From: Marsupella aquatica
Lineage: Eukaryota > Plantae > Marchantiophyta
Direction: 5' to 3'
DNA: 64,000 nucleotides
Assembly: GCA_973895155.1 (NCBI GenBank)
Contig: OZ316895.1
Span: 20,226,803-20,290,802, forward strand
Shown here: positions 6,909 through 63,886 of the stretch, one piece after another
Layout: the number at the start of each line of letters is the position of its first letter
Numbering within the stretch: position 1 is the stretch's first letter
Position numbers and translations under genes: made by a program
The notes under the pieces: model-generated
The model's input: the letters and a program-made list of their open reading frames with translations, nothing else
The model's database searches: none
Told to the model about the DNA's origin: nothing

Positions 6909-7249
6909 TCCTTAGCCACTCCGTTTGATTGACCACCCGCTGCTGCAAGTTCTCCACCTTCCACACGGTGTCCTCTAACTCCTCCCGAGTCTCATCCAAC
7001 TCCCCTTGGGCAGCCTCCAATTCCTTTTCCAAAGCCGTCTTCTCCTCTTGGGCTTCCTTCAGCTCCTTGTTGAGCTTGATGACGACATCATACTCCATCT
7101 TATACATCTTTTTGTATTGTTTATCGAGCATGTTGTCCTTTCAATGCAAGTCGGCTTGAAAATTGGCTGACAGGGTTGCAAGCTCCTCCTTCAGCAGAGC
7201 AATGGCCTTGTGGGTTTTGTCATAGTCGGCACACTTCTGTTGATAGTCC
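6909..7249 (-). pseudogene. Coiled-coil ORF fragment, probably a retroelement accessory ORF, truncated on both sides
   Basis: ORF 6847-7131 is heptad-rich (LKEAQEEKTALEKELEAAQGELDETREEL). It abuts the DNMT fragment and the LTR terminus at 7250. Confidence 0.4.
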
Positions 7250-36707: not shown

Positions 36708-37127
36708 TCAAGCATACAAGCATACATTCAAGCACTCAAGCATACAAGTGACATTGCCAGGCACACTGCAGGATGGAGAGTGGTTCCAGATGATACATTG
36801 TGCTCTATGCAAAAATTGACATCCAAGAGAACGGTCATCCAACTCTGGGCAAGAAGCCCGACAGGCAGGACAGTCATATTGGCAAATGTGTACACACCCT
36901 TGGGCCCTAATTTGTGGCGGGTCATGTACGAGAGACAAAAATACCAAGGATGTTGGGAAGGGTGGAGAAGCAGGTATAGGCCGACTGTAGTTATTCCTGG
37001 CAACAACAGGGTACTCAAAGTACCATGCAGACTGGGCAGGAAGGATCCCAAGTCTGACATACTCAAGGCGCAACCTCTCTGCCTTGCGTGCAAGCCGCAC
37101 ATGTTCAGCATTGCGAGTGCTCACCAT
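36708..37127 (-). CDS. Cys/His-rich orphan ORF of the CACTA family (homolog of 59030-59479)
   Basis: 139 aa. ~36745-37395 is highly similar to ~59095-59748 and the frame is open in both copies. Confidence 0.45.
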   Translation of the reverse strand: MVSTRNAEHVRLARKAERLRLEYVRLGILPAQSAWYFEYPVVARNNYSRPIPASPPFPTSLVFLSLVHDPPQIRAQGCVHICQYDCPACRASCPELDDRSLGCQFLHRAQCIIWNHSPSCSVPGNVTCMLECLNVCLYA

Positions 37128-39939
37128 AACTGTTGCTTTTCTTCAAATGTTTTGTGTTCACGTCCTCCGACATCCTTTGATCAGCAAGGTGAGCAGGAGC
37201 TACACTTGCCTCACCAACAATAACCAACCTTAACTTATCAGTTCCCACTCACTGTATCATTCCCTTGGTTCCAAGTAGAGGTCATAGTATAAACTAGCAT
37301 GAAACACTCCTAATCAACAATGTTGCAAACTACAATATCCAAAAAGACTGAAAGTCTCACCCTGTAGTGAGCAGCAGAGAGGTAGTTCACTGCTTGTAAG
37401 AGTGAACTGAGCAGGAGTGTAGGTAGACTGGCATTCAGTTGGCACAACAATATTGTGCATCAGCACAAAAGCTCTTATAAACATGATATGCATTCATGAA
37501 ACTCGTCGATACAGCACAGGTCGGCATAGGAAGTGGCCCGCAGCACTCAGTCAAACTTCATAACCAAAGTATAGACTGTGTTCACAATAAGGATCTTCCT
37601 TAAAAAAGGGCCCACCAAAAGGGGGTGGCAGAAAGCTCACTTGACAAAAGGAAGATGGGAATGAAAAAAACCCGGAAAAAACTGCCTCCAAGGTCAATTC
37701 ATCCATGGCCCAGTTCAAGACAAAACAAAAAGAGTCAACTCTACACTTGGTTGTCCAAATTAAGCATGCATCACTGAATGAACGAGGGTGAAAGCTTGTG
37801 AACATTTTGGTGAGGGCCCCAATCCGCTCACATTTCACAAACAATGCCAAAAGCCAAGGAGCCCAAGCCAGAGGACGCAGCAAGAGGCCAAACAGCATGT
37901 ATGCATTTTAGTTCAAAGGGGGATTCAGTCTCCTCATTCACTTCACAAGTTGCAGAGAACAAGCACCTCGGTTGACTCCCTGAACCCAAGCTGAAGATAC
38001 CCATATGGAAAATGTTTTTACTTTTAAGCAATTTACTTATAGGGCTTGGCTTGGTTCTACCAGAGGTGTACAGTCATACTCCCCTCAGGTAGAATGTGTA
38101 TGCAGTTATGAGCAGATATGAAGAAGCCAGCAAAACAGAGGAGCCAATCGAAGCCAAATCCTACATTCAAAATATGAGTTAGTTTGTACCTTGCAAAGGT
38201 GGACCCCTACCCTGCCTGAGTGACTGACAAGATCCGCCGGCTTAGGTTGCACGATGCACGCCCTCGCTCCACCTCTCCAAGATGCAGGGTCGATGTAGGT
38301 TGCAAGTAGAAGCTCACAAGCCAAATATTGGGCGAATGTGGGCTCCAACTGTACTGTAGTGTGTCGTGGCTCTGCTCCTGCCTCCTATAGCTTCGAATGT
38401 GCCAGGGGTTACCAAACAACTGTTATTCTATTGAAATTGGCTACAAAGAACTCTTGTCTTTCTACACTCCACCTGCACCAAAATGAAGTCTTAGTACCAG
38501 TGAGACCAAGAACACAAAAGGAAGGGGCACATTCAAAGACAAAGTGATTCATACCACATTCAAAGATAAAGCGGAAAGAATTGGAAAAACCAGAGTGAAA
38601 GAATTGCGAATGAATATCTGTTCACACTGTATGCACGGGATCTTACATTTAGGGTGACTCTATTTGCAAAAGCCATAAAACAGAGAAACAGAGACCAGAA
38701 AACAGAGAAACAAATTAAGCATGCATCGCTGAATGATTAAGCATGCATTGCTGAAACGTAAAAACTTCACAGCGTATCATTTCTCTAAACAAAGGGCCAC
38801 ATACTCTGGTCTCTACAGAGAAAGCAAATCCAACTACGATGAGAAGATTGGTACAGAACAGGAGAGAAAAGGGAGACCAGAACAAATATTTAAAATCAGA
38901 ACAAGAAGACTGGCAATTTAAGGAACCCCAAGGAGCCTATTGCATTTGAATCACATACATGACCCTAGCATACTCATAGTGGGGCACTAGATACTGGGCA
39001 AACTCAAGGTAATGGTCAGAATGAAACCAAAAAGGTCTTGAAGTTGCCAGGTCCCGCCTCGTTCCTCTTGCACTTTGCAGAAAACAAGATGCAGAAAACT
39101 AACCTATAGCTCCAACCGGCTGTAGTTGACTGAGCTGCAGCAAGTTGTGAAGACAGGTCGTCCCCAGCGGCACCTTGTCCCTGCCTTTAGCTCGTCCTTC
39201 ACCGCAAGTCTTTGAGCTGCTCACAACCACAGCTAATAGATGGCTAAATAATGGGATCATGTGCAAAGGGAAATTATGAGCGATGAAGCGAAGGGAAGCA
39301 ATCAGTTCCGGCACCCAACAGCTAAAATGACCTCACTGACAGTTGGCATCTATGCAGATAGATCGAGGTCTTGTCACTAAGTTAGACACAATTTATGGTG
39401 AGAGTGTGAGTGTGAGTGTGAGGTTCCAGAGAAGGCTAAAGGACCTTTGCAATGCAAAATGTGGTGCAAATGGAGCCGCGAGGTGGACAATAAGTTGGTG
39501 ATAAAACCGGGCAGCATACATAACACCAAACCAAAGACACAAATGACCAAACCGAAAGACGCTTTCACCAACAATGCATATTCAGGACATGAGTGAATGG
39601 AAAGAAGCAAAGAGAGATACAGGGATTACAAAAAAAGACTAGGCCCTCGTCTGTCCAGACTTCTGTAGGACTCCACTAACTCCATTGTCCTTCTCAGATC
39701 CCCAAGAAGTCCATGAAGCAACGAAGAACCTGGGCAATGTGACTTAAAGTAGCAACAGTACATACACATATGAATGAAAGGCTGGTTTGGGGCAGCACAA
39801 GCAAGCAATGTGACCCCCTGCGTTCTGCTCAATCAGCCAAGAACACCCTAAAATCTATGAAAACAACGGGCAACAGAGGAGTTTGTAAGTGATTCTCACT
39901 TGAAATTCCGCCAGCTGAATCTTCCTTGTTAGAAGGTCT

Positions 39940-40520
39940 GCTAACTCCGCAGAATGACTCCCGGATGATTAGAGCAACGTAAGTGGCTCACTCCCTCTGA
40001 ATGTAAGTGAGACACTCCCTCTGAATGTCTCTACTCATCAGAGAGTAGAGCTCCTCCCACCTTTGACCTCCCCAACTCCCCAAAGGTCAGTGGCATCTGC
40101 ACAGTCACCTCCTTTGCACACCGCAATCGCTTCAAATCCCTCCTCCTAAAGCGCACAATGTTATGCCCAAGCGCGATCAGGTGGCAGAGTCGACAACAAA
40201 TTGAGAAAGAGTGACTCGGGAGCGAAGTGATTCAGAGCAGGTGGCTCTTGCTAACTCCACAGAATGACTAGTAGATGATTAGGGCAGCGTAAGGGCAGAG
40301 CTCACTCCCTTTGAATATCTCTACTCATCAAAGAGTAGAGCTCATCCCACCTTCGACCTCCCCAACTCCCGAAAGGTCAGTGGCATCTGCACAAATGAAG
40401 CGGGAGCACACCGCAATCGCTTCAATTCCCTCCTCCTAAAGTGCAAAATGTTATGCCCGAGCGCAATCAGGTGGCAGAATCGACAGCAGTGAAGTCTTCG
40501 AGCAGGTGGCTCTTGCTTTT
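39940..40520. repeat. Tandem duplication of ~260-310 bp inside the small CACTA
   Basis: GCTAACTCC.CAGAATGACT...CAGGTGGCAGA.TCGACA at 39940-40197 and 40250-40487. Confidence 0.9.
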
Positions 40521-42162
40521 CCCTCGCAAAAACTAGTAGTCGGCACTAAACTACACACCAGCACAATCACTCCTTGGATCCCTTCCCGTTGATCGGCATT
40601 TTTACCCTAACAAAAGTTCACACATGTTAGATGTCACTTAACACTTAGCACAAAACGGTCAGTAAGACCTAGTAAGTGTGCATGAGATTTTGTTTGTGGC
40701 CCTTTTAGTTTGGTGATTTGGGTATTGGTTATACAAACACCCAATGTCACTGGGAGTAAGACAACACCCACCCTTATACGAGAATGCCTAAATTTGATTA
40801 AACTTTACAATACCCATTTGGTCACAATTAAATAATGAGACCACATATTAGGGAGCAGGCCTAGGTAGCATAGGGTACTTTAGGGCTGGGCCCTCCATTG
40901 TGTGGCTGTTTGGCCTATAGGGTATAGGCCAGGAATACATATCGATAGGTCGGAGTTTAGCTCCCAATTGTTCACTTCAAGGTTTAATTAGTTAATTAGG
41001 TCGGGTTACACCGTACGTCCATACCGTGCACCATAATATGTGTTGGCTATATAGTAATGGACCGAACTCATCCTTATCCTTATTACATAAATGAACATAC
41101 TAATAGGGATAAAAGAAGGTAAGTATGACCCCAAATTATGCCAAATCCAAATGGTAACATGACACATATTAGGTGTGCAATATGTAATGGTCAGTTTAGT
41201 GACTAAAATGGCTTGCCTTCCTTCCCGCCCTTCCTAATTGGTCATAGGAATAAGACAACGACCAAAAAGTGAATAGTTGTATATGTTTTGGTGTCTTATG
41301 TTGACTTAAGAATGACTCAGAAGTCGTATATAGTCACATAAATATGACTAAAGTGTGGGCTGCGCACAATGGCGGTCAAGCCTGTCATAAGTGGTCGGGT
41401 CACAAAACACCCCGGTTTCTACTAGTGGCAGTTTCCAAGAAGCAACACGACAAGGACTATGGAAAATTGACGTTGTAACAGGTGACCTTGTCCTTCTGTA
41501 TGATAGCAAGTACATGCAATTTCCCAGGAAGCTGCATACTCGCTGGTTGGGACCTTTCCTTGTCAATCAGATTTACCCAAATGGATCCATTGAACTCACG
41601 ACGTACGCCGGTGACTTACTTCCCACGTGAGTTAGTTACAATCGTGTTAAGAAGTACCATCATCAAGATGATATCACCAATAGCGATGTTCGTGAGGACG
41701 CTTCACAGTTAAGTAGGGAGCTATGTGACGCCGCCAGCACGGCTGGTAATGAGTAATACGGCTTAACCCGTGTTACGTACGTTGGAAGTAGACTTAGTAG
41801 CCTGTAGTTATTAGTATAAAGACACAAATTAGCTAGTCATGATGTTTAGGACATGATTTAGTAATAATGGGGATTCGTGTTTGGGCTGGCGGCTTGGCAC
41901 CTGACGTACTGCCGGATTAGGGGCGCGTTATGGCTGTCCGCCTTGGATCAGTATAACAGATCCGGAGATGGCCCACTGGCATGCTTTGACCCGGACCTGC
42001 GGAGTGGTTGGTACCCCCCGGGCGTGAGGGGCTCGGCCTATCATAGGCAGGAGGAACCAATCGGTCGACGCACCACAAGAGTATAAAAGGCGAGCTCTTC
42101 CCCGTCTTGGGCCACTAGTTCACTCCATGCGCCAGCTTTGATCCCAGCCTCTCTAGTTTTCC

Positions 42163-47325: not shown

Positions 47326-48148
47326 CACTAGTAGAAACCGGGGGGTATTTAGACCCCATTAAACGACTATTCAGTACCGTATAGGACTTGGAAACGACTG
47401 GGAAGGACTGCAGTCCTTTATAGGACTGCGAGTCGTATGTTTTGTTACTATAATCAACTGAGTCCTTTATAGAACTGGTTTATAAGTCGTTTAATAGACT
47501 GGATTTTCAGTCTATTTTAGTCTTTGTGTGGGTAGCTTTGGTGAGTCGTTTTCAGTCTTTTATGGGCTGCGATGATGAGTCGTTGGGAATGACTAAAAAG
47601 GTTATGGAGGGTAGTCTTTAAATATACTTTGTGGGGTATGTATAAGTCTTTCATGTCAACTGGATATGAGTGATGAAGACCCCACTATACTACTTGGAAT
47701 GAACCCACTCTTGTGCACAAATAACATATTGCATTCATGTTTTATTGTGTACTTGGAATGAACTCACTCTATAAGTTCACCATTCATCATGTTAACATTA
47801 GAATACATAGTTTCAGAAAGCCATCTTCTATACCATGTACACTAATATGAATTCACAGATTCAAACTTCATAGACTACAAAGAAGGTCACAAAGTATTCC
47901 TCTATACCATACACACTAATACTGAAATGATAAAATAGATTCAAGTATCATAGACAATCACCATAGAGCCATAGTTTGACATCAATCACTTATGAACATA
48001 CAGAATTCAGAAATATCAATGTCACACACAACGTCTCCTTCATCCTCTTTACCAAATGGAAAAATTGGTACAGATATTTCTTGGATCTTTCCAAGGCAAT
48101 GTCAAAATGTGACACAATTCACATGATTCTATCTACACTTGCATTCAG

Positions 48149-51100
48149 TCAATGCAGACTAACACACTCTGATGGCCAGAGCACAAGAGATCCTACTGCA
48201 TCTGCAATTATTTCCTGAGGTGGATCATCGTCTCTATTCGGAAATGGCAAATTACAATCAGATACAATCACTGTAGTCAACAACACTACTACATGGTCAT
48301 CCGGGACCACTTTGCCATGGAATTTTGCATGATCCGGTCGCAAAATGCCTGTACCCACACATACTTGCGAGTCATCCTCCCATGAGAGAAGATTATGGAC
48401 TGGCTCTGCTGTGGCTATCACCTCCACCTTACCCTGGCTGTTTTTCTTGGCTTTCCTGGGTGGCTTATACATGACATTATTCATACCTTGGTTGCGAGTC
48501 ATGACTTTGGCACGAGTGTTTTGTGCTGGTGATCGAGAATTGGCTACACTCTTCTTCAAAGAATCTGCATCCATATTTGACACTTCTGATTGTGTAGCAG
48601 GATTTCCCTGCGACATCATCTTAGTATCTGCCAACATTGTACTTGCTTCAATTGAAGCATCTACAATCTTACTTGCATCCAATGTTGCTCCCAAGTTTCG
48701 ACGTCGCTTCACCCTACTCCCACTTGGTTGAGAGTCTGTCAACTCTGCATCAACTTCAATTCAGTGTCATGTCCAACATAAGTCAATCACTCATCACATG
48801 TGCTAAATGTACATGTCACCAACCACAAAGTTGTCACTATCTCCTTACCATTATGAACAGCCTTCTTCCCCTTCTTTGCCATTGCCATATGCTCCATGTC
48901 TGCTTCTGTTGATCAATAAACACACCACAATATTCAGGTTGAATCTATTAACCACTGAATTGTTGCTCAACATTCATATAGAGGAATTTAAAGCATCAGC
49001 TTACCTGATACCTCCTTGGCTATGGTCACTGAGGCACTGGGCACATCTTCTTCATTATTGCTCTTTGAATCACCTGATACATCAATCATGATGTCACTTC
49101 AGATCCCAGTTCATCCAACCAGTTCTTACAGAAAAGATTACCTCCAACCGGCTTAAGCTTCACAAAACTCCATGCACTTTTCAAATGTAATGTATTGGAT
49201 CATAGCAGGTTACCTGTCTCAGCAACCTTCTTGCCCTTCTGCTTACTGATTACAGGGTCCTTCTCTGCCTCCACTCTTCCTGCATTCAAACCATTCACTC
49301 AATTCATGAAAACTTACTTCTAACATTTGAACATAGGACACAATGAACAATGGGCCGGTGTCATTTCCATACCTGTGTCAGATTTGCCAATTCCCTTTTT
49401 TGTTAACAAGGGCACACTTTGTACAATGTTGCCCTCATTGTTTGGTTGGGAACCACCCAATTTTTCAATCACAAGCTTGAAATTAGATTCCACTGATGCA
49501 AGAAGGTTCGCTACAGATGCCTCCACAATATCCAAACGATCAGCCAATTTACTTTCCACTCGAGGGAGTCCACACTCTAATGACTTCAACCGTTCACACA
49601 TCTCTGTGAGAGTTGTAACAGTTCCCTGTCATAACACAGCTTACATATCTCAGATAACTGTCCCCAAGAACTGGTTGCTTACTTCCTACTACATTTCTTT
49701 CTGATGCTCAAGGCCAAATAGTCACAGAACATACAGAATTACAACATAATCACCTGTTTGGAAGTTACACTTGTCACCTCACTCCTTTGTTTCATGAACT
49801 CCTCTCTCACTTCTTGTGCTGATGGTTCTTCACCTGTCAATTTCTTCTGCAGTCCACATCAACATACATATGAATGAAACCAAGTGTTGATTGTCAATGA
49901 AAATGTAATAATGGTAGCAAGATGATAAGTTTGAGGCTTACTATCAGGCATGTCACTGCCTTACCAATTGTTCTTTCACTGGAGCATAACTTCCTCTCCC
50001 AGCCTGTGAAAGGTGTTTCACTTTGCCTCGAGCATTTGACATCAGTTCACTCTTGCTCTGTCCAGCCTCCGACATGAACCCTTTGATTAACCGTGTCCAT
50101 TGATCCAGTTCCAATGATGGGGGTGGTGACATTCTCCTGTTAGAACCATTGTCTATCCACATCCTTTTCAACCTATGCCTCTCTTGTTTCAAAATCCTCA
50201 TTGCATAATCTGATATGCAATCTTCAACTGGGCCCTTACCATCATTACCAACATACTCCCACCGTTCAAGAATGTCCTTGCAGATAGCAGCCCAATCAGC
50301 TTTGTTCTGACTCCTAAACTCTGTAATGCTCAAATCTAACCAACGCAATACTTCTCCTCTTAGGTCAGAATGCCAACGGTTCTTACCATCACATGTGGGA
50401 GTTATCCAACCTTCGGAATTCACTTCTACTTTACCAAATTTGTTACTGTCTCCTGCCTTGGTACTCCCTGAAGCGCTACTAGGTGTCCCTCCACGGCCTG
50501 GTGTCCCCCCACGGCCTGGGGTCCCTCCACGGCCTGATCTCCCCCCACGGCCTGGATTGCATTGTCCAAACCTCCCTGGAGTCCCTGCACATTTACAGGA
50601 TCCATTTACAGTCACTTACATTAGGTAAATATGAATCATAAATCCCGCTGCCAAATATACAGTGGACTTCAGAGCAATTCTGCAATGACCAAGTTACCTC
50701 TCCCTTGGCGCATAGATGGTTCTGGACCACCTGTCCTATTGCTTTGTCTTGATGAATTAGGGGCGTTTCTCCCGCCTGTGAATGATTGCCTCCTATCTGA
50801 ACGTGGATGGCCTTTGTTGTTTTCGTGATTGTCCCAATCAGAGTCTGCATACCAACAGGTACATGCCACACTCATGGACCTGTAAGATAAACTCTTTGCC
50901 CTAGCTACACATCAGATAAGTGCATATTGAGCTAAATCTCTACTATCATCACAAAATCACTAGCACAAGGCACTTACTTGTCCAATCATCCTCCTCACCT
51001 TTCCATTGCCCTCTGTACCCGTCTCTACCACGCTCTGGGTGTTCATATTCATCCCATCCATCTTCTGCTCCATCATAGTCATCATCATAATTATCAGGCG

Positions 51101-51320
51101 TCCCTTGCCAATAACTCTGGCTCCTTCTAGGGTATGGATTATGTGATTTCTCTCTAGCTGCCCACCTACCTGGGACTTGATGAGGGCCCTGTGCATCTTG
51201 CACAGGTGCATTTTTCTGTGAGCCCCCTGCATCTGGGTCTCCATTCATATCCAATCTTTCCTCTTCACCCCACTCTCCAAGCCCCATGTCTGTCTCCATG
51301 TCATCACCCTCTTCCCCCAT
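48149..51320 (-). CDS. CACTA TnpA-like protein (multi-exon; exon structure approximate)
   Basis: Exon 49965-50595 has W..I...W EY...RILKQERHRLKRMW..PPPSLELDQWTRLI...SELMSNARGKV..AGRGSY (Ptta/En/Spm-type). A coiled-coil exon lies at ~49360-49625. The last exon has FHGKVVPDDHVVV...LPFP...IADAVGSLVLWP. Confidence 0.8.
50482..50555 (-). repeat. 18-bp coding repeat (PGRGGT) in TnpA
   Basis: CCACGGCCTGG repeated four times, giving PGRGGRSGRGGTPGRGGTPGRGGTP. Confidence 0.85.
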
Positions 51321-51497
51321 AGCTTCTGCACAGCACCCACAACCAAACAGGGAGAATCAGCACACTAAATTCAAAGTATCAATCAATTTCATGCATATCC
51401 AACTATCCTAAACATCATTCCAGGCAGCAATTCCCGTTATGTGACTCTGTGCAGGTAGTCATCCTCAACCTCATACTTGCCAATCGCCAGCTGTTGC

Positions 51498-54400
51498 CTA
51501 TTGCAAATCATCAACCTCATCATATTCCATTTGCCCAGGTTCATCATATGTCTCTCTCAATGTTAAGGGGATGTAGTCAGTCCCTGCCCGAGTTGGAAGT
51601 ACAGTCTCATGACTAGGATGCTCGAATGCAGCATGGTCATCCAAACTGAACTCTACTTTACTTCCATCCATCCGCCTGTTCCGTGCTTGGCTATGGCATA
51701 CCACCCTCCAGCCATGTGACTCCTCCACATCTGCAAAGAAAGCCTGTTCAACTTGGCTAGGGAAAACAAAAGGCTCAGACCATTCTGGTACTCTGGACCT
51801 AAAATTGGCCAACAAGAACCCATCATGATCACGCTTCATGGTGGCCCTTGGTCTCTGCCACTCTGATTTCACCCATGATCCCTTCATCAATATCACTGGG
51901 ACACTTGTGTTACCATAATTCAACACCCAAATGTCGGTCAACTCCCCCACGTAACCCATCTTCATCCACCCCCTCTGTTCTTCAGAGGTTCTCTGCTCAA
52001 ACACAGAAATCAAACCACAATCATATGATACACAATGGTCACCCTGCTCATCCCTCACTCGATAATGATTTCCATAAGCTCTCATCCGTTTGTAGGTCAG
52101 AATAGACAATCGTGGTGGCACAGATAGAAGATACAAATCCTTCTCCATATCTGGGTGATGTCTACTATGCTCTCGAATTGTCACCCAAATCCACTGCTCG
52201 AACTGTGGGAAGGGATCCTGCTGCCCAGAGTGTGCAGCTTTTTGCATATCATATTCCCTGCATTATGAGGTACAGGCATAGTTAGGTCTAAACAACACAT
52301 GACAACCTAAGATCACCCTTGGAACAGACAAGAAGCATCACAACAAAGGCAAGTCAATTCAATCACTCACCTCCACCATGGTTGCATAGGCTCTGTGTTT
52401 GCCAGCACATATGAATGAGCCTTGTCTCGAATCGCAACAGGCAGCTGAACAGCACGTCCCACACCTTCAACAACCTCGCCACTCACTCCATCATCTTCAC
52501 CAGATTTCCAAACTCTTGTCATAGCTTCACCAGACCCAGCCATGTACTCTGTTAGGAATCCCAACGTCTCATCCTTAATGTACCCCAATGCCATGGAAGC
52601 CTCTGGCCTGTAGTATGTTCTCACATGACCTTTCAACAACTTCATGTATCGCTCCATAGGGTACATCCATCTGGTACTGACTGGCCCATACTGCCCTAGC
52701 TCTTCTACCACATGGATTAGGAGATGAGTCATAACATCAAAGAAAGCAGGGGGGAAGTATATCTCCAAGTCACAGAGGACATAAGCAGCATCCTGCTTCA
52801 ACTGCTCCAATCCTTGGGGATCCCACACTTTCACACATATACGGCGAAATACATTGCACAGTCGAAGAATGACATTACGGACTGGTTTCTGCATGAGACC
52901 TCTGAGGCATAGGGGCAGAATGTGCTGCATCAACACATGGTAGTCATGTGTTTTCATACTGCCAAGTTTATTCTTTGTAATATGCTTCTTGAAGGCACCA
53001 GCATAGCCAGAGGGCACTTTCAGACAGCTCAATCTATACAAGAATGTCTTCCATTCATCCTGTGTGCACACATAGGGAGCTTGGAACTTGAGAAGTACAT
53101 TGGGATTGCTTGCATGGGGCTTCAACCAAAGGTGAGGGCGAATCCCCTTCTGTTGCATATCAGCTCGAACTGCTCCTGTATCTTTCTCACCCGACAAGAA
53201 CTTCAGCAAGCTCTCACAAATATTTTTCTCAATGTGCATGACGTCCACATTGTGTTTGCTGGGCTCGAATTCCTGCACTCCACAAAGCAAAGAATTCAAC
53301 AACAGAAACACTAATTAACCACATAGGAGGATTGTAACCAACATCAATCCACCATTGCTCCAATCTAAAATTGCAATCATACAGGGGCTGGAGGCTAAGT
53401 ACATTACCCTCCAGTACTCCAACTCCAAGTCCATCAAGGTCTGTCTTTTCACACCGTGTTTCACCACTGGATCCTCAGGTTCTCGATCAGTGGCACTTCT
53501 CTTGTCCCAATCAGCCTTCCTGGCTGCCCACCTCAGGACTTGCTCTCTGGTGACCCTCTGTGGTGGGCCACGAAGCTCTGTTTTGTTGTTGAAGTGTGCA
53601 ATTTGAGACCGTGTGTGCCTGTAAGGATGATCAACAGGCAGATACCTTCTATGCCCCTGAAATTTCATACTGTGCAGGGCATGCGACCACTCACTTGTCA
53701 CATTTTTCCCACATGGTGTGCACCCCACATAGCCCTTTGTCACTCGTCCAGATATGATGCCATGGCCTGGGTAATCTGCTATATCCAGCAAACAAATTGC
53801 ATGCAGTCTAAAGGGGCTGGGTCAAAGAAGCCCCTTCAGAACATCATGGGTTAACACCCCTTCTATCCACAAAGTCTTCCACTCTTCCACTGCTGGAGCC
53901 AACATGATATCTATGAATTGCTCGGTCACAGAAGCTGGTCCAGGGATTAACAGCACCATCATGACAAAAAACCTCTTTGTAGTCATCCATGGGGGAAGGT
54001 TGTAATTTAGCAGCGTAACCGGACAACATGAATAACGGTTGTTTTTGTCTCCAAATGGGTTTACTCCATCCAGTGATAGACCAAATCGAAAGTTCCGCTT
54101 CTCTACAGCAAACTGTGGCCACCTCTCATCAACAAATTTCCAATGGTTGGAATCTCCAATGTGACGCTGCAGGCCATCACTGCTCTTGTTATCAGGAGTC
54201 CATGTCATCAGCTTGGAAATGGCAGGGCATCTAAACAGACGTTGTAGTCTAGGAATGAGAGGAAAATGACGAAGAACCTTGGCAGGGTGTGTACATTTCC
54301 CTACATTCTTGTACCTGTGCTTACCACAATGAGGGCATGTCAATTTATCTGCATGCTCTTTGCGAAAGAGAACACACCCATCAGGGCATGCGTCAATAGA

Positions 54401-55198
54401 CACATAGTTCAGCCCAAGGTTAGACATCAATTTCCTAGCCTCGTACATATTTTTTGGAATTGAATTACCATCTGGTAACACATTTCGGCGCAGGAAGGTC
54501 AACAACTCTGTCACAAATATATTGGGAACATTGTGATTGCCACAGATGTTCAACAACAACACGACAAAACCCAGCTTGGAGCAGTTCGACCCCTCGTAGA
54601 TAGGAATGCAAGCTTCTTTGATGTGTTTTGGGCCCCCAAACACCCACTCCCTCTCTGCTGCACCTTCCCCAATGTCAAAGTCAGGTTGAGCTTGGCCGTC
54701 GCCAATGTGTGGCTGCGGTTCATTGTCCTCTTCTGATTCCACTGTGTCGTAAAAAGCATCAAGGTCTTCAAAAATCTCTTGAACCATTCTTGGGACATCC
54801 ATCCCACCGTCCTCAGTGATTGCCTCTGCATCTCCATCTTGGTCATCCACGTTCTCATGTTGGACCCCAGGACCATCCTCTACACAGTCTATGTCCTGCT
54901 CTACGTAGTCTCTACGCCTAGCTGTATTAGAATCCACAAAGTCAGCTCTCCACTCTTCATCAGAGGAGTCTTCTTCTGCTGGTACATTCCAAACCCTCCA
55001 CCGAGGGTGCCTTTCATGCCGCAGCAGGTGAAGGTGCACAGTGTTCAAACTCAACGACTTGAATCCTTGGCACTGTGTGCATGGGCATCTCATCCTCCTA
55101 CTCCTACCTTGGGCGGCCCGGGCTTGTTCACGCATCCACAATTTAGAATCATGATGCCTAATCCTAAATGGGTTGTGAAGAGGCAACCTTGGAGCCAT
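51498..55198 (-). CDS. CACTA TnpD transposase (two introns, one in-frame TGA at 53822-53824)
   Basis: MRCPCTQC; IDACPDGCVLFR..CPHC; HFPLIPRLQRLF; LSLDGVNPF; YNLPPW; DYPG; DVMHIEKN; KTHDYH; FPPAFFDVMTHL; WMYPMER; EPFVFPSQVEQAFF. Introns at ~53410-53273 and ~52370-52259. Confidence 0.95.
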
Positions 55199-55524
55199 CA
55201 CTATACACACGCACTCAGCACCCTGTCATTTTATTATGCAAGCGAAAAATACACTTCCTGTTAAGGATTTCACCCCCGACTGTACTTGCCAAAATACGTA
55301 ACGTTCCAAAAAAACAAAAAAACAAAAAATATAGGTGCCTGAGTCATGTACCTATTCTCAAGTGAATGAGACAAAATTCCTAAATGTTTGAGGGTGTCAA
55401 CTCCTCCGTTGTCCTCACATGTACTGCCTCTGCACGTACATCCATGACCATATCAGAGTCCAATCATGTATAGTCATAGACACAGGTGCCAGGTGCGAGA
55501 CCGGTGTGAGATGTCCTCATCTTA

Positions 55525-56094
55525 CTACCACATCAAATACGGATACCAATCCTGTTGTCGATGCCACTCAGCCCTGAGGTACTCAGGCATGTACATTAAG
55601 TCATCAAGGTCTAAACCCTGCTCATGCCATGGTGGTCTTCGATCCGTGCCTACAAGCAATGGCAGCAGTGCCCTCCATGGTGCACATGTTGCTACCAAGT
55701 CCCTCCACTGGGTACTAATTAGTCTATATTTGCAGATATCTTGTGCGCCAGACACCACAAGAACCCTCGGCCAGACATGTGTAAGAACTATATCATCTGC
55801 CAAATCAGGCAACAAGGAACCACCTACAGCATCGTGCTTGTCTAACTCATCTGCTGAAAAGTAAATGTCCTCTTCCGACTGTGCATCCTCATTCACCACA
55901 GCATTCACAACACATCCAAGGTCTGCAGGCATTATCTCGGATGGAGCTACACTCTGTCTGGTTACCAATCCACACAAGTAAGCCCAAGCAGTAGCCATGC
56001 ACGATGCAACCCGTAGGAGGACCCTACATAGGGCCTGACGGTCTGGAAGAGGCAACATACCCACCAAAGTCTTCAGCCAAACAGAGCCCAGCAA
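55525..56094 (-). CDS. F-box-like protein (CACTA cargo)
   Basis: SLLPDLADDIVLTHVWPRV...ICKYRLISTQWRDLV fits the plant F-box pattern LLPxLPDD...L..V...WR.L. No recognisable substrate-binding domain. Confidence 0.65.
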   Translation of the reverse strand: MLGSVWLKTLVGMLPLPDRQALCRVLLRVASCMATAWAYLCGLVTRQSVAPSEIMPADLGCVVNAVVNEDAQSEEDIYFSADELDKHDAVGGSLLPDLADDIVLTHVWPRVLVVSGAQDICKYRLISTQWRDLVATCAPWRALLPLLVGTDRRPPWHEQGLDLDDLMYMPEYLRAEWHRQQDWYPYLMW

Positions 56095-56234
56095 GTAGAT
56101 TCACAGTCACACCCCACGCAGCAGGAAACAACAATCACTTCAACTGCGACCAACCATGACAAGATGAGTTAGTTCAAGGATCACATTTATTACAAAATTG
56201 TGTTTTATACAAAAATATGAGGGACTCCTACTCC

Positions 56235-57081
56235 TCACTCTCTCCCACCTTTGCTAAGCATACATCTCCGCTGAATCTTGGAGGGCCAGGCCTCAAAAAT
56301 ATCAAAGTCCCAAGCATTCTGTCGCTTCCCTCTAGCTGCTGATTCCAGAAGCCAATCAGGGGAAAGCACCCAAAGATTGTTGTTCATGACAAAATCACGC
56401 ACTGTTGTCTTAAAGAATTTTCTGCATATTTTCATGTATGACAGACCTACAACATGAGTGGAGGTTTCTGTTAGACTCTCCTCCACTGTCCCACCTAGCT
56501 CAACAACTATAGACTTGTACAGTCTGCACTTAGTCTCCCCAATTCCTTCTTCTGCAAATACCACACTGAACCCCTTCATAATGGTATTTCTCTCCTTGCC
56601 ATGCTCATTCAATATAGCATGCACGCATAGGATGGTGTCCTATGTTGACAACAGGTCCATATTGGACAGAAGCAAAGTTGGGTTTCTCTGCCGCTGCTTC
56701 ATAGGCTTCCTTTTCAGCCAAAGCCTCTGCAGTGGCCTCCTCACTCTCCCACAACTCATATTGCTCAGTACTCTGTACACACCTATGTTTAACAGAATCG
56801 GTCAGCCAAGAGACTTCAACTACTTTTAGACCTTGGTTGGTAATGGCAGAATCAATGAAGGACCATGACCACTTGTTCATCACATCCAGCCATGTCCCCG
56901 CAACAACATGTGTAGTCTGTGGAGTGATGTCCTTGACTTCAGTCCCATGGAACTCTGAGAATCGTTTTTGTACGATTGGCCAACTCACTTGGGTGAACCC
57001 ATAGTGGCCAGGAATCAAAATGGCTTTGATTCCAGCCAATAGAGGCGGGTGGTCAACCTTTGTACGTTTTCTAGAGGCCAT
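56235..57081 (-). CDS. Tandem BRCT-domain protein (two ORFs joined by a frameshift or small intron, or two single-BRCT genes)
   Basis: LAGIKAIL...HGTEVKDITPQTTHVV...VVEVSWLTDSV and MKGFSVVF...LGGTVEESLTETSTHVV...LSPDWLLESA, each with the BRCT G-G/THVV/W..(D/E)S pattern. Confidence 0.85.
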
Positions 57082-57679
57082 GTACACACGGGCCACCTAA
57101 TCATTGCAGACCGGAAGATAATGCGTTCACCTGATAATCGGAGGGCCCTTAAAATGCTGCGTTTATAACTTGGTCCAGTCCAGTCGTCTGGTGAGTCTCT
57201 GCTCCGATTCCAAACGGGAGAAATATTGGGACAAACGTACTAGACACCTGCAAGCATGCACCTCATAGTTTGAATATGTGCCTTCACAATATTGAAGGTG
57301 ACAAGTGCAATTGTTTTGTGATGCCACATACAGATGTTGTAAATGGGCAGACATTCAATGAGAATACAAAATGTTGGTACACTTTAAGGGAATTCTCGCA
57401 AATTAAATAGCCTTGTAACTTATATGCTCATAATGAGAAGTCCTGATTTAATTTAAGCAGTGTCATGTAAGTCGTGATCAAAATGATTGCAGAGTTAAAA
57501 AAGTTCCTAGAAGGCTTAAGGGCAGTTTTTGAAGGCATGTACCCAGGAACAAGTAATGAACTTAGGGTACTTGTTGCCTAAGCATCCTCTCCTACAGAGG
57601 TCCTTCTTCTCAAAATTGGAATGTCTGCAATCTCCAAGGTATCCACATCAGGTGCACTATGCATGTATATTATTCAGGT

Positions 57680-58360
57680 TCAAAGCCAAGAAATGTGATC
57701 TCTCATGGGAGTGTGCAAAGTAGGATCTATGGCATGGCGATGACAATAGAAGATCCATCGATCAACACCATGTGCAGAGTGATCATAGATGTGTCTGTCA
57801 CAAGCATAGCCTTCTGCTTGACGCTCATTCAAACAATGAAAGTGCCACATGGTGGGACACCTAACACAGTGGACTATGTCCACCCAGAAATCTTCATCGT
57901 GCTGACCACATGCCTTGCACTTATGAAGTGGGCAAGCTGTGGCAAGATCGGGCAAACATGAAAAACAAAAGAACCTCACACAATATCTGTCAGGGCATTT
58001 CCTAACAAGTGGTGGAGCATCAACAAAGCCCTCATAAGACCCCAACTTCCCACACTGTGCACACTTAGCCTGCTTCTCCAAACAATCAGTGCACATCCAG
58101 CCTCCCTGGTGTGCTGACGGGAGGCCCACCCCTGGACAGTTGTTTTCTGCAGCAAGGTCAGACTCCGGGTTGAGGTGGAAATGCCTCATGCAAGGGCCCT
58201 CACATATGGCTAAGCCACCACCATCGTCACAAATGGCACAACAATGAGCTGCCTTCTGGAAAATCTGACTTGCGGAGAAGTTACTACCATCTGGCCCAAC
58301 TACACCTGTGTTGCTCACCTCTGTCCCCCGCTTCTTGGCTCGGATTTTAGGGCGTGCCAT
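57680..58360 (-). CDS. EDM2/NSD-type composite (triple) PHD finger protein, intronless (CACTA cargo)
   Basis: CAICDDGGGLAICEGPCMRHFH...WMCTDC..KCAQCGKLGS...CPLHKCKAC...CVRCPTMWHFHCL...IFYCHRHAIDPTLHTPMRDHI matches the recalled plant EDM2 PHD region and its downstream motif. Basic NLS-like N-terminus. Confidence 0.88.
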   Translation of the reverse strand: MARPKIRAKKRGTEVSNTGVVGPDGSNFSASQIFQKAAHCCAICDDGGGLAICEGPCMRHFHLNPESDLAAENNCPGVGLPSAHQGGWMCTDCLEKQAKCAQCGKLGSYEGFVDAPPLVRKCPDRYCVRFFCFSCLPDLATACPLHKCKACGQHDEDFWVDIVHCVRCPTMWHFHCLNERQAEGYACDRHIYDHSAHGVDRWIFYCHRHAIDPTLHTPMRDHISWL

Positions 58361-59029
58361 GCCTACGCATGAGACAGATAGTACAATTTAGCAGAGTGCA
58401 CGGACAATACAATTTAGTGCAGTGTACAAAAAGTACAGTGTAGCATATAGACTAGAGTGGCAATTGCTACTGCAATGAAATGTTCACACACATGTGCAGA
58501 GTAGACATACTTTTTGGTTTGTTGAGCCCACACTAAAAACTGATCCCCTCGTACAATAGCTCCACCTACACCTCAATTTTGTGGCTATGATTCACCAAAG
58601 GAGATCTGCAACAAGATTTAATGCATTTGAATCACATATAACAGTCGTGACATGTAAAACAGACATTTTTTGAACAGGATTGGTATCAAGCACTGTGATC
58701 AGGGTTGTAATTTATACATCCTAAATAGGCTATGATAGTGAATGAGACAAATAAGTTAGGCAGAAATCACTTTTTCCAGGTTATCACATGGCCCATTAAT
58801 TCCAGTCTTTGAAAGGAGACTTTTAAGTGAGCTTGCTAGCCTCTTAAATTAGGATATTGTACTTAGTGCAGCCATAATAGGATAAGTTATGTACTGTTGA
58901 CCCTAAACCCTGGACCCAAAATTGGTCATAATTCAAAATCTTAAGTAAATATCCTCTCTGTTCAAGTCAAAGTGTTAAGTTATAGGTCAATGGTCTCTGG
59001 TTTGTGCATGCGGTGTGACAAGTGGTCCT

Positions 59030-59479
59030 CTAGAGCGTGTGATCCAAACATGTGTAGACACCAAAGTGACCGGTGGTGGGGTCTGGGAGGGCAGGACAAG
59101 TGACATCGCCAGGCACACTGCAGGATGGCGAGTGGTTCCAGATGATACATTGTGCTCTGTGAAAAAACCGACATCCAAGAGAACGGTCATCCAACTCTAG
59201 GCCAGAAGCCCTACAGGCAGGACAGTCATATTGGCAACTGTGCACACACCCTTGGGCCCTAATTTGTGGCGGGTCATGTATGAGAGACAGAAATACCAAG
59301 GATGTTGGGAAGGGTGGAGAAGCAGGTACAGGCCGACTGTAGTTGTTCCTGGCAACAACTGGGTACTCAAAGTACCATGCAGACTGGGCTGGAAGGATCC
59401 CAAGTCTGACATACTCAAGGCGCAACATCTCTGCCTTGCGTGCAAGCCGCACATGTTCAGCGTTGCGGGTCCTCACCAT
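59030..59479 (-). CDS. Cys/His-rich orphan ORF (CACTA cargo)
   Basis: 149 aa with CVHSCQYDCPAC..C..H...C...H...C. Homolog at 36708-37127. Confidence 0.45.
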   Translation of the reverse strand: MVRTRNAEHVRLARKAEMLRLEYVRLGILPAQSAWYFEYPVVARNNYSRPVPASPPFPTSLVFLSLIHDPPQIRAQGCVHSCQYDCPACRASGLELDDRSLGCRFFHRAQCIIWNHSPSCSVPGDVTCPALPDPTTGHFGVYTCLDHTL

Positions 59480-62400
59480 AAGTGTTGCTTTTGTGGAGAT
59501 GTCGTGTGTTCACGTCCTCTGATAAGCACCTTCGATCAGCAAGGTGAGCAGGAGCTGTACTTGCCTCACCAACAGCAACCAACCTTAAATTATCAGTTCC
59601 CACTCACTGTGTCATTCCATTGGTTCCAGCTAGGGGTCACAGTGTAAACATAGCATGAAACACTCCTAATCAACTTGCTTACAAACTACAATATCCAGAA
59701 AGAGTGAAAGTCTCACCCTCCAGTGAGCAGCAGAGAGGTAGTTCACTAGATGTGTTGATGTGCAGTTAAACCTCCACTATTGCTTACTTCTGGTGTATGC
59801 TGCTCAGAAGAAGACATATTAGTAGCAGCAAATTGCAAATAATGGCCATAAGCAAACCGTGAGAGTTTGCAAAATGCTACGACAAATCCATCACAGCAGT
59901 GCTCCACAGGAATGAAACCAAGCAAAATTTGGTGACCTCGGCCAATGACAAGGCCAATGTAGTGAACAATCCTTGACCGATCAGGATATGGATTGGAATT
60001 ACAATTAGTCAGCTCTTCTTCTTTGTTTTCTAACTCTGGGGGAAATGAGCATGACCAGGGAATTCTTTGAGAAATAGAAGTGCACAGGGAAAATGAAATT
60101 GGCTCATTCAGCTACGCAAGACCGGCCATTGCAGCAAACTTGGACAGTTGTTCCGCAATACATAAAATACCCTGACTTACATGCAATCGATACAATCTGC
60201 TTCTGTTGGCTGTCCTACAGCTCACGGTAGTGCCGTTGGGATAGGGTAAGTGAATATTGTCATAGCTGAAGCACATTGAGCTTGCAGCAAGAAGTGAAGG
60301 AGCATGGCCAAAAGCAGAAAAGACAGACAGGTTTTACAAGAAGAAACTAACAACCGCCAATCTGCTCAAATCCGCTGCATAGATCAAACCCTCCAAACTA
60401 CACAGCCCTCCTTTGAAAACAATCCAATGTGCTTTGGCTGGTGGATGACAAGGACTGGGAGAAGAGGAAACGTCTACACAATCAATCCCAATGACGGGAC
60501 ACAGAGACCAGGCACAGAGAGGATTTGTGCTTAGACAAAAACCACAAATTGTAGCATGGGCGCCATAGCATTGGGCGGCAATGGGAAGAATTACATCAAA
60601 TGAGTGGACAGAGAATGAACAGTCCGGTTATAGGCAAACAGCGACTGATGCCCTGATGCAATGAAACACGCATTGACATAGCGGAGGGACATAAAAACTA
60701 CATAAGCCAACTTACTGACCTTTTAAGGCCCACAATTTCAAGGGGAGGGACAAAGACAGCAATAACAGACGCAGAGACAAAGCTGTACTCTGTCAATTGA
60801 GTAGGCAAGTGGGTGGGTGAAGATCAACAACCAATGTAGCAGCGCAACCAGAGTAGCAACAAAGAAGCAGGTTGCCCTCAGTCTCCTATTTTTCAAGCAG
60901 CTCATGCTCGCGGTCAATCTCCTATTCTGCAAGCAGCTCACGCTCGTCCCTCTTGTTCTGCAAGCAGGTCATTCTTGTCGGCGATGGTGCAAGCTGTCCT
61001 CCTAAACTTTGACACTCAAAATGAAAAGACCAAGCACCTCCAATCTGTTTGATCCCTTCCGCAAGCAGTCGAGTGGCAGACGATAATGTAGGGATCAAGA
61101 ACCAAGTGCCAGGCGGACATTGCACAAAATGAGGACCGGGGGCAGAGACAAAATCTACCAAAATCTACCGAAATCTACTTCTTGGGGTCCAGCCCACGGA
61201 TGGACATCATGCAAGGTGGTCAAAAATGGTAAGTGCAATTGTTGGAGAGCTGTACTCGCGATTACTAACGGTGCATCCACAAAACGCGTCATCAAGTTGT
61301 CAGTGCGGCCACAACAATTTTGATAGTCTCAGGATCACAGGTCCACAAACAAGTTGCAAATGAAGACACACAACGTCCAGGAGGGAAAGTCCGCAACACT
61401 AACCCTTTGTAAAGCCCCCGAGCTTACCTTCTAGCTGCCGACGCAAAGAGAAAACCTACTTGGACACTGAAGCAACCCTAAACTCAAAGTCTCACCTTAG
61501 CGCAACAACTCCTGGATTGGATTCAGCTAGCTCAGGCTCAATGAAGCATGTCGCCTCGGGCTCTCCGGATCCTCCCAAGGCAGCAAACAAGTTAGGGTCC
61601 ACGGTCCTTGTACCTTCACCGCACCGTTGTGTCCTTCCCAATGCCTCCTCTGTAGTTGCGTGTTGTCTGCAACTCTACAGCTCCCCGTGTTGCTCTGCCG
61701 CACTTAGTTATATTCCAACGCCCGATCGTGACCAAAAAGAGTTTTCTCCTGCTGGACAGCACTAGGCATTTGTTCAATCTCTTGATCACGCGTAAGCAGC
61801 TACAGGTATGAATCACTCAGTTGGCAGCTCAATACGCTTACAGCAAGAGGGCACAATAGGTAGAAGCTCGCGCTACCTAGACCAGCACAAGGACAAAGCA
61901 TTAACATTGAAACTGTACCATGGAGCTGGAGAAAACCACAGAGTAATTTAAGCCTAACAATACCCTTCTTAGCTCCCGACTCCAAACTCTCGGCTCCCAG
62001 TTTGCAAGAACAAGCACTATGAAAATATGGATTCCCACATTGACTGTGTCCGTAGAACAGATGCAACCCGCATGCAACTTCACCAGCTCAACGGCAGCTT
62101 GACAACTGAAGGACCTCCCAATGAGCCTCACGGCCTCCCGATGCTCGTTATGGGTGCAGCAAAAGGGTCTATACCACAACTGTGACCGAGATTGTCACCC
62201 AAAACCTTGAAGAAACCCCAACCTCCGACTCCTCAAACTCCGACAAGCTCCTCACGAACGTTGCAGCAGCCACAACCTTCTTCACCCTACCAGCCAAAAA
62301 CTAAATGTCCCTAAAGGAGATCGAGCAGGAATGCAGGTCTATGAGTAGACTGCAAGCGCAAGGTTAGATCACTGCAACTGCCTGAACACTGCTCCTCGAG

Positions 62401-63886
62401 AGCATAAACAAGCATATAACGCGCGGGAAGTTCACTCCGCAATGGTCGCAAAAAGTGGGCAACACTGAAAGGAAAACCCTACGTAAAACCCCGAACACTC
62501 CACCCCTCACGTTCTAAGTTCAATGACAATGGCGAAAACTCCAAAGAGACTCCCAAAGTGAAGTTTAGTGCCTGAAACCGAATTAGGGGAAGCCACTCAG
62601 CCTTACCGTTTGAGTGAGCCGTTGAGTGTCACCCAAAGTGGGACAAAGCTACAAAGTGTTACTGCATGGCCAACTTAGGCAATGAATGGTCATATTTGCA
62701 CATACATGGTCGGTAGTGACATTTTATTGCACGCCGTAATCAGGATTAAGGTTGCCCAACATTATATCCGGTCCTAAAATGCAATATTCCCGGTGCAAGA
62801 ATGTGACCTAGCTCTAATGTATGAAAAAGGACCGGTACAAATCTACCTTTGTGCATCTTGACCTTTTATAGATGGATTTAGTAATGGCCAAGAATATCTT
62901 GACCATCCCTCCATGGTCCAACCTCCATGAACCCCACTTCATTAAACCCAAAACCTTTTTGGTCACAAATAAGGACATTTAATGAGTTATGCCCCTTGCT
63001 ATCACCCTCTTTATAGATTTATTTTTTTGTTTGAAATTTTACATTTATTCCGCGTGAACCCCACGGATGGGGGAACCAGTAGGCCAAATGGCATCATAAA
63101 ACCTCAACACCCAAAGGAGGCAATAACAAAGAGTTACTCAACCAGGGTCATCAGATCAGGCAAAGATTGCGAAGCCGTTCTTCTAGTGGTCCATGCAACA
63201 AGTAACAACTAGGGAATAAGCACTAGAAGGCGCAGTAGGTCAGCATAGTGTAAGTGTAAAGTGTCAAAGCATTGTCTAGTACTAAATTAATCCACCTGAT
63301 TAGTAAGAAGGGGGTGTATACTGTAATGGGAAAAAGAAAAAAAACCAAGGCATGAGCAAGGGCCACCAAGAGTGGTGCAGCTATAAGCTATAGGGATTGA
63401 ACACAATGCGGGGGGGCAGTGGCACTATGTATGAGGAAATCACGGGAGTATCGGTGTCAAATGAGTCGACAAAACTCCCAGATAGCCACACAGTATAAAT
63501 CAATCTCACAGAAGGCTGCCATCAATGGAGGAAACAATTTGACACGACCCACATCTGAGAGTGTGAATTCGCTCGATCTCCAGCAGTTCTTTGGCACTCG
63601 ATAGACGTCGGTGCTTTCGGCTCAAAGATGAAGGAGAATTACCCCTCCTCAACATAGAGTGAACATTACCCATGATGTGCTAGACTATTCACCCTTCACA
63701 AAGTAGCAAGGTTACTTCTCATAGTCTTTTAGTGAACCATAAAACTCTCATAGTCTTTTCTAGTCTTCAACAAAACCGGTGCAATGGGTGCGAGTTGTTT
63801 TAAGTATGGAAAAAGGACTTAGTGGGCATAGTCCTATAAGGTATGGTCTAAATTGCCCCGGTTTCTACTAGTGCATGCATGACGAG

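Follow-up and report, generated by a model that had tools for sequence, protein, structure and literature searches.

Accessory genes have been described in several groups of DNA transposons, among them CACTA (En/Spm) elements and the VANDALs, which are Mutator-like. CACTA elements, including the CACTA-ULP1 families of grapevine and rice, have termini that start with CACTA, a 3-bp target site duplication (TSD), subterminal repeats and a Tnp2 transposase, and the host-derived, protein-modifying cargo of CACTA-ULP1 recurs family-wide (PMC2528002). The extra open reading frames (ORFs) of VANDALs, VANB and VANC, are proposed to counter silencing in trans (PMC5735166). Fungal EnSpm, Plavaka and KDZ elements carry TET/JBP genes, which are chromatin-related and thought to aid the escape from silencing (PMC12730594), and an F-box isoform is present within the DNA transposon Zisupton (as cited in PMC12062965). 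Here, we describe E1, a CACTA element located in a window of 64,000 nucleotides from Marsupella aquatica (Marchantiophyta; assembly GCA_973895155.1, contig OZ316895.1, forward strand positions 20,226,803 to 20,290,802). Upstream of its transposase genes, E1 carries a cassette of four cargo genes, which code for an EDM2-type PHD protein, a double-BRCT protein, an F-box-like protein and a Cys/His orphan. This layout is found family-wide, and the PHD, F-box-like and orphan genes are constrained.

One of the cargo genes is related to the host protein EDM2. The PHD fingers of EDM2 bind H3K9me2 and other marks (PMC7472560), and the AAE complex enables transcription to proceed across heterochromatin (PMC7472560, PMC7529245). 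EDM2 can raise or lower the transcripts of transposable elements (TEs): its loss lowers those of COPIA4 and raises those of Mu1 (PMC3632883). In Arabidopsis, TnpA demethylates terminal DNA and leaves H3K9 methylation in place (bioRxiv 2026.08.24.746577). Together with VANC, it is one of the few cases from which counter-silencing by plant DNA transposons is known.

Structure and gene content of E1

E1 spans positions 47326..63873 of the window on the minus strand (16,548 bp). Its terminal inverted repeats (TIRs; CACTAGTAGAAACCGGGG) start with CACTA, are perfect over 18 nt at both ends (47326 and 63873; 5' TIR at 63856..63873 on the minus strand, 3' TIR at 47326..47343 on the plus strand) and are flanked on either side by the TSD CAT. 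The 3' TIR is followed by AGTC/GACT-rich subterminal repeats (a 17-nt repeat, four times at 47373-47501), and a 12-nt repeat is found three times at 63720-63838. A 12-mer of the TIR has four matches in the window, with 0.29 expected by chance; two of them bound E1 and two bound a second element, E2. CACTA-starting TIRs, 3-bp TSD, TnpD domains and subterminal repeats are all present, which bears out an earlier note on this DNA that had reported a CACTA transposon with intact TIRs and TSD.

All genes of E1 lie on the minus strand, in the 5' to 3' order orphan, PHD, BRCT, F-box-like, TnpD and probable TnpA. The cargo zone holds four minus-strand ATG-to-stop ORFs of at least 149 amino acids in 4.6 kb and none on the plus strand, and 5000 dinucleotide shuffles gave one at most. 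The earlier note had described four compact, largely intronless ORFs, mostly with open frames, in series upstream of TnpD/TnpA on the same strand. Their co-orientation and the number of four genes hold for the family, but this copy has five cargo ORFs, since the BRCT gene is split in two. The orphan, PHD and F-box-like frames are open, whereas the BRCT frame is shifted by a 2-nt loss and TnpD contains an in-frame TGA at 53824-53822. The coding parts are intronless by alignment to homologues, not by RNA. Splice acceptors directly precede the ATG of PHD, BRCT and TnpD; as 23% of random 34-nt windows have one, they are only suggestive of splicing, and it is possible that each cargo ORF is spliced to a shared leader. 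A fusion of PHD, BRCT and F-box into one polyprotein was discarded as the default reading: PHD and BRCT are not connected by any GT-AG join that keeps the frame, and the homologues share the ORF starts and stops.

The multi-exon TnpD gene (51498..55198, minus strand, boundaries approximate) matches the Pfam families Transposase_21 (E 6e-34 and 2e-19), DUF4218 (2e-27) and DUF4216 (2e-5). Because of the premature TGA, this E1 copy is not intact; it is dead for TnpD and BRCT. The probable TnpA-like gene, also multi-exon (48149..51356, minus strand, approximate), was placed by analogy with En/Spm, and its match to Transposase_24 at 49953-50615 reaches only E 0.014, which is below the cut-off. Of the transposase pair named in the earlier note, TnpD is recognised by its domains and TnpA is a candidate. 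Gly/Arg-rich PGRGG repeats, which are RGG-box-like, are located at 50460-50580 (minus strand) in a probable TnpA exon. The 5' region of about 4 kb (59800..63855) is without recognisable coding, as Pfam found nothing better than E 0.02 on its ORFs; its contig depth lies below that of the remainder of the element, and it likely varies among copies. Pfam searches with 24 short ORFs from this region, a spacer and E2 gave weak matches only, likely due to chance. CpG is depleted in E1, the cassette included (observed/expected 0.19-0.54), and CHG is not (0.86-1.27); the CpG depletion suggests that the cargo genes were once under CG methylation.

Occurrence of the cassette in the family

The stretch or part of it is held by ten sequencing runs from eight studies, none of them recorded as RNA, and six of 12 listed runs were compared; contig depth is read as a within-run ratio only, not as copy number. 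Run X1 is possibly the source sample, and X5 stems from another organism and another study. The CACTA family is young, as six long contigs of X1 show only 17 differences to the window over 5371 bases. Near-identical X1 contigs of the F-box-like gene (depth 2006, 1919, 1772) and the BRCT gene (1807, 1768, 1931) are as deep as those of the transposase genes (2073, 1766, 1949, 1912, 1817), and in X5 the cassette contigs have a depth of 20-55 compared to 41-75 for TnpD. Furthermore, all 30 bins of E1 are covered in X1, X2, X3 and X5. With this transposase-like depth in X1 and X5, the four-gene cassette is a family trait and not peculiar to this copy, so that the possibility of ORFs restricted to a single copy, which the earlier note had raised against its own reading, can be set aside; the orphan also recurs in E2. 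The X1 bins of PHD (5654) and orphan (7983) exceed those of the transposase (2086-2609), which fits the presence of extra non-autonomous carriers. The gene order in other organisms is derived from continuous cover, because none of the listed contigs reaches across the entire cassette. X6 and X9 are more distant runs, in which the F-box/BRCT stretch is covered in 20/30 and 15/30 bins, mostly by short contigs of low depth, and one X6 contig (depth 101) matches just 111 bases of the first BRCT repeat and then diverges. The TIR of E1 was absent from the viral contigs searched.

E2 (36062..41427, minus strand) is a non-autonomous element with the same TIR as E1, the TSD GCA and no transposase match. 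Apart from the TIR, it shares with E1 only 652 bp, namely the orphan and its upstream region (36744..37391, minus strand, including 264 bp upstream of the ATG at 37127), which are 91% identical to E1; the last 21 codons of the orphan are replaced. About 3.5 kb of the interior of E2 is unrelated to E1. The element has subterminal repeats dense in TGACT, contains a duplicated segment (39939-40198 and 40249-40488) and is inserted in a Ty3-type integrase region. Contig joints at 52822-59041 (X3), 58562-59335 (X2 and X3) and 52965-53956 (X1) point to internal-deletion derivatives; one of the deletions would remove most of TnpD together with F-box, BRCT and PHD, although its short side comprises 22 letters and is unsure. 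A further X1 joint, with a side of 31 letters, lies at 56546-56636.

The PHD gene

The PHD gene (58360-57680, minus strand) codes for a compact, stand-alone EDM2/NSD-type multi-PHD protein of 226 amino acids. In alignments, it comprises 2.5 atypical fingers and the EDM2 C-terminal motif TPxRDHI. Its profile matches named EDM2 proteins at E 1e-30 to 1e-28 and NSD2/NSD3 as the best PDB entries (E 1e-10 to 2e-8), and the Pfam matches of the ORF, PHDvar_NSD (8e-6) and PHD-1st_NSD (4e-4), are both below the cut-off. The label EDM2-type given in the earlier note holds for this module. The ORF is limited to this module and is devoid of the N-terminal RFD-like and the C-terminal ELP domains of EDM2; the host matches P0019, P0024, P0026 and P0042 carry DNMT1-RFD. 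Five Logan proteins of 217-245 amino acids match the window protein over its full length with 81-36% identity, and the profile search returned 546 proteins at E 0.001 or better, in which compact forms come first and long EDM2-named proteins next. Among the annotated relatives, three of the four top-scoring ones are from Calypogeia, Marchantia and Riccia.

Identity to annotated host EDM2-type proteins amounts to 32-34% (7/7 tested). A careful tree built from 34 chosen rows places the compact PHDs (11/11) in one clade with a support of 99/99 and a stem of 1.75, which was recovered with 17 rows in a quick tree of 71 out of the 150 usable rows (SH-aLRT 95). As to the donor, the free tree puts this clade outside the land-plant EDM2s on a long stem; approximately unbiased (AU) tests do not reject a grouping with liverwort paralogues (p 0.094) or with the long liverwort EDM2s (p 0.068). 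In 12 of the 15 compact rows, a ligand is swapped from H to C and the spacer has 7 residues, the other three rows being too short to score, whereas the long host proteins keep the H in 106/116 cases and mostly have a spacer of 27, which corresponds to a deletion of around 20 residues in the compact forms. The acidic patch in front of PHD1 is also lost (0-2 acidic residues in 10 versus a host mean of 4.2). The Cys residues are retained at 0.90-1.0 compared to 0.37-0.79 under neutrality, with at most 2 of 300 simulations reaching such values in any of the seven pairs (7/7); the conservativeness of the non-Cys mismatches is mixed (0-191 of 300 simulations). The PHD gene is evidently under purifying selection. 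Given the low identity to EDM2s, the separate clade and the constraint on the Cys residues, its remodelling is old and not the result of recent exon capture, and a near-identity to host exon fragments, which the earlier note had regarded as a sign of random capture, was not found among the annotated EDM2s compared.

After the Met, the basic N-terminus of the window protein (ARPKIRAKK) agrees with the tail of histone H3 at A1, R2, K4, A7 and K9. An ARxK start is present in 8 of the 19 compact PHDs that have an N-terminus, and six of these eight also have K9 (P0014 was read from an internal Met). It is likewise present in 3/147 other proteins; all three lack K9, are short and EDM2-like and fall in the host part of the tree. 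A plain nuclear-localisation signal would explain this start equally well, and mimicry is a lead only.

A metagenome locus scan with the PHD alignment yielded nine loci, eight EDM2-like ones of host type and one unrelated PHD protein, and the cassette was in none of them. Short EDM2-like proteins that consist of PHD only (L001, L003-L007; P0034, P0043, P0057), several of which start with MARxK, make up a separate group in the host part of the tree, where stand-alone EDM2 readers have possibly arisen independently. In another EDM2-like subfamily (P0015, P0018, P0020, P0029, P0032, P0061; support 99/98), which includes proteins of Calypogeia and Riccia and is distinct from the long liverwort EDM2s, the PHD module is located close to the C-terminus.

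The F-box-like, BRCT and orphan genes

The F-box-like gene (56058-55525, minus strand) codes for 177 amino acids with an N-terminal helix, an acidic patch, an F-box-like motif and a conserved 45-residue tail; a known substrate-repeat domain was not found. Three homologues with 51-55% identity, two of full length and one without the N-terminal helix, keep the acidic patch, the L-P-x-D-L F-box-like stretch and the tail. PDB matches are weak (FBXW11/FBXL5, E 0.6-0.7), as are those in the Atlas, in which 10/10 family-bearing matches belong to the F-box clan (clusters 0.86-0.91, 82-87 shared features). Mismatches are more conservative than under neutrality in 3/3 pairs (0, 6 and 0 of 300 simulations), which argues for purifying selection on this gene.

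The double-BRCT gene (56235..57081, minus strand) encodes 282 amino acids in the family and is split here into 57081-56605 and 56579-56235 (Pfam E 3e-9 and 1e-3). Behind 56619, a 2-nt insertion is carried by the entire depth of X1 (1767.5/1767.5) and X5 (49.5/49.5). The window copy has privately lost these 2 nt at 56619/56620, and restoring them gives a single 282-aa frame (read through with X); the insertion rejoins the frame in all of the X1 and X5 depth, and the two BRCT ORFs are thus one family gene. The two repeats are 24% identical to each other (E 7e-7), and in the PDB they match BRCA1, ligase IV and Rtt107 best, all weakly (E 0.07-0.9). Repeat 1 has Y-G and no Lys where the S/T-G and T-x-K pocket of BRCA1 type would be expected, in an alignment that is itself weak (E 0.07). 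The tandem BRCT of the earlier note can hence be retained for the family; it is broken in this copy, and the classic phosphopeptide pocket looks absent.

The orphan gene (59479-59030, minus strand; 149 amino acids) starts with MVRTR, as do its homologue clusters P0006 and P0007 (56 and 54% identity, 97% coverage). Between E1 and E2, 11 synonymous and 10 non-synonymous differences give a dN/dS (the non-synonymous rate divided by the synonymous one) of 0.28 (p 0.007-0.018 across models), and the ORF differs at 21/384 positions compared to 32/264 in the upstream region (p 0.003), which indicates purifying selection between two elements of the TIR family. The orphan has no match in Pfam or PDB, no usable one in the Atlas and none in Foldseek at E 0.001 or better, and its label stands. 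An opposite-strand frame was rejected, as it has a stop in E1 and a dN/dS of 0.5 (p 0.10), and as it is the minus frame to which the homologues align. The AlphaFold models of the F-box-like protein (pLDDT 40.6) and the orphan (pLDDT 43.8) were too poor for use.

Possible function of the cargo

The cargo is probably selected and long-resident in the family, to which we assign a probability of about 0.7. Concerning its function, we favour, at a probability of roughly 0.4, that the cargo genes act in trans on host chromatin and counter silencing, thereby keeping the family transcribable. The PHD protein, the histone-binding module of EDM2 without its other domains, could sit on the H3 tails of silenced copies or compete there with host readers; without partner domains, it would occupy or shield the marked tails, and a decoy or a site for self-binding may be contributed by its H3-like N-terminus. 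Through its conserved tail, the F-box-like protein might recruit an SCF ligase to a host protein involved in silencing or repair, thereby removing one host factor. The double BRCT would serve as a scaffold rather than as a phospho-reader and may be a passenger. The orphan is enriched among the non-autonomous derivatives and, of the four, is the prime candidate for a specificity factor that binds DNA or chromatin. The cargo would complement a TnpA that, as in Arabidopsis, strips the terminal DNA methylation but leaves H3K9 methylation.

Several points weigh against this reading. The distant homologues are known as protein records and may lie outside CACTA elements or in another gene order, and the EDM2 comparison set consists of annotated proteins without the host's own EDM2. 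The histone specificity of EDM2 cannot be assumed for the compact PHD, because the acidic patch is lost. The F-box label reflects a resemblance that stays short of the threshold: Pfam PF00646 matches the window ORF at E 0.08 and three of four members, the best at E 0.001, all below the cut-off. The frames of the F-box-like homologues are open where around five stops are expected, an argument that is inflated since the homologue databases hold open frames only. Of 108 recent differences, 40 were available for scoring, 38 of them in ORFs (27 BRCT, 11 F-box); these samples are small, were selected by support and include live as well as dead copies. The BRCT rows (7 synonymous, 20 non-synonymous) are as expected under neutrality, in a test that covers near-identical copies only, as no distant BRCT homologue was searched for; the F-box rows (4 and 7) are not significant, and ten rows on the transposase side gave 5 and 5 for comparison. 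In addition, the main F-box contig of X5 (depth 42.7) carries a frameshifting 43-nt deletion (55850-55892), deep comparisons of the orphan are not significant (34 and 192 of 300 simulations; Cys, 36 and 38 of 300), and the E2 copy of the orphan is truncated. The earlier note had regarded the cassette as a selected module for evading silencing, choosing targets or managing repair. Its observation is confirmed with the corrections given above, and its interpretation is partly supported: neutral evolution does not describe PHD, F-box-like and orphan but resembles the state of BRCT, the BRCT pocket looks absent, the main contig of one related organism has a broken F-box, and the order is known in near-identical families only.

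The strongest alternative, although unlikely, is hitch-hiking, in which the family took up entire small genes of the host, or retrocopies, fairly recently, their conservation was built up at host loci, and they were amplified in Pack-CACTA style. The distant homologues known as proteins without genomic context, the neutral-like BRCT, the frameshifted F-box of X5, the patchy cover in X6 and X9 with the contig that diverges within BRCT1, and the short EDM2-like PHDs in the host part of the tree would all agree with such a history. However, 0/22 looked-up clusters of compact PHD, F-box and orphan proteins come from an annotated genome; all are from Logan, JGI or ENA and without a functional name. 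Several compact PHDs (P0014, P0016, P0050, P0121, P0140, P0146 and P0149) lose similarity in mid-protein, as decaying copies do, the orphan is constrained between two elements of the same TIR family, and four whole, co-oriented coding regions free of introns are unlike shuffled exon fragments.

A selected cargo could also serve target choice and repair, which we consider rather doubtful: the PHD protein would anchor the transpososome at a histone mark, and the repair proteins at excision breaks would be managed by BRCT and F-box. The evidence for selection on PHD, F-box-like and orphan would support this role as well, the PDB matches of BRCT to repair proteins, weak as they are, and of PHD to NSD2/NSD3 are compatible with it, and the altered acidic patch of the PHD could mean a new mark. 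Against this, the cargo genes are separate from the transposase, the depth of PHD and orphan above that of the transposase and the orphan in the transposase-less E2 point to trans or cis-linked roles outside the transpososome, and BRCT is without a sign of constraint.

Within the counter-silencing reading, a bolder version, for which the odds seem low, is that an old CACTA lineage of non-seed plants built a kit from an H3-mimicking, EDM2-derived reader and an F-box protein that destroys a silencing factor. The tail of the PHD protein would then be a decoy for writers or readers of H3K4/K9 or a self-binding switch, and virus-style histone mimicry and ubiquitin-ligase hijacking would be combined in a cut-and-paste transposon. 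A search by title and start of abstract found nothing relevant on histone mimicry in plant transposons.

F-box proteins direct substrates to degradation, and a cargo that dampens its own element in a host-friendly way, for example by promoting silencing or by SCF-mediated degradation of the transposase, would be conceivable. Although EDM2 represses some TEs and Mu1 is de-repressed in edm2 (PMC3632883), such self-repression is improbable for a family that amplified recently with the cassette in place.

Other features of the window

The window is repeat-rich plant DNA with Ty3- and copia-type ORFs. Fragments of a C5 cytosine DNA methyltransferase are located on the minus strand at 6441-6911 (PF00145, E 2.6e-5) and 32224-32697, within an element that is present twice (5091-6908 and 29734-33105, about 92% identical) and that is possibly a methyltransferase-carrying retroelement.

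Comparison with known systems

Accessory cargo in DNA transposons is known already (ULP1, TET/JBP, F-box, VANC), and what may be new is the set of PHD, BRCT, F-box-like and orphan cargo in a CACTA element. A search by title and start of abstract, with Repbase, supplements and subscription journals outside its scope, found no report of PHD, BRCT, F-box or EDM2-like cargo in CACTA/EnSpm elements, and the main text consulted from two recent papers on TE products (PMC13547354, PMC13317346) does not mention PHD or F-box. With E1, the accessory repertoire is extended outside flowering plants. Over a long divergence, the family appears to have kept a remodelled reader module that corresponds to that of EDM2, an anti-silencing protein of the host itself, together with an F-box-like gene, and its four small single-exon genes, which can be expressed directly, bear on the question of whether transposons read or block histone marks and take over SCF.

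Unlike the CACTA-ULP1 families (PMC2528002), E1 has four separate cargo genes upstream of TnpD, none of which codes for a ULP protease. The analogy to VANC that was drawn in the earlier note is loose: VANC is sequence-specific and binds tandem-repeat DNA motifs (PMC5735166), whereas the cargo of E1 consists of recognisable host-derived protein-interaction modules. TET/JBP cargo is an enzyme that acts on 5mC (PMC12730594), and no catalytic domain was found in the cargo of E1. Zisupton belongs to a different superfamily, and its F-box is part of a large protein (PMC12062965), whereas the F-box-like protein of E1 is encoded by a small separate gene. In contrast to Pack-CACTA fragments, the cargo consists of whole ORFs that are present family-wide, diverged from annotated EDM2s in the case of PHD and constrained, but BRCT looks neutral. 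The closest relative of a single cargo gene is the PHD cassette of NSD and of host EDM2/ELP1 in the AAE complex (PMC7529245, PMC7472560), which has the same atypical 2.5-finger module including TPxRDHI; unlike EDM2, however, the E1 protein stands alone, with the ligand swap, the spacer deletion, the lost acidic patch and the basic, H3-like start described above.

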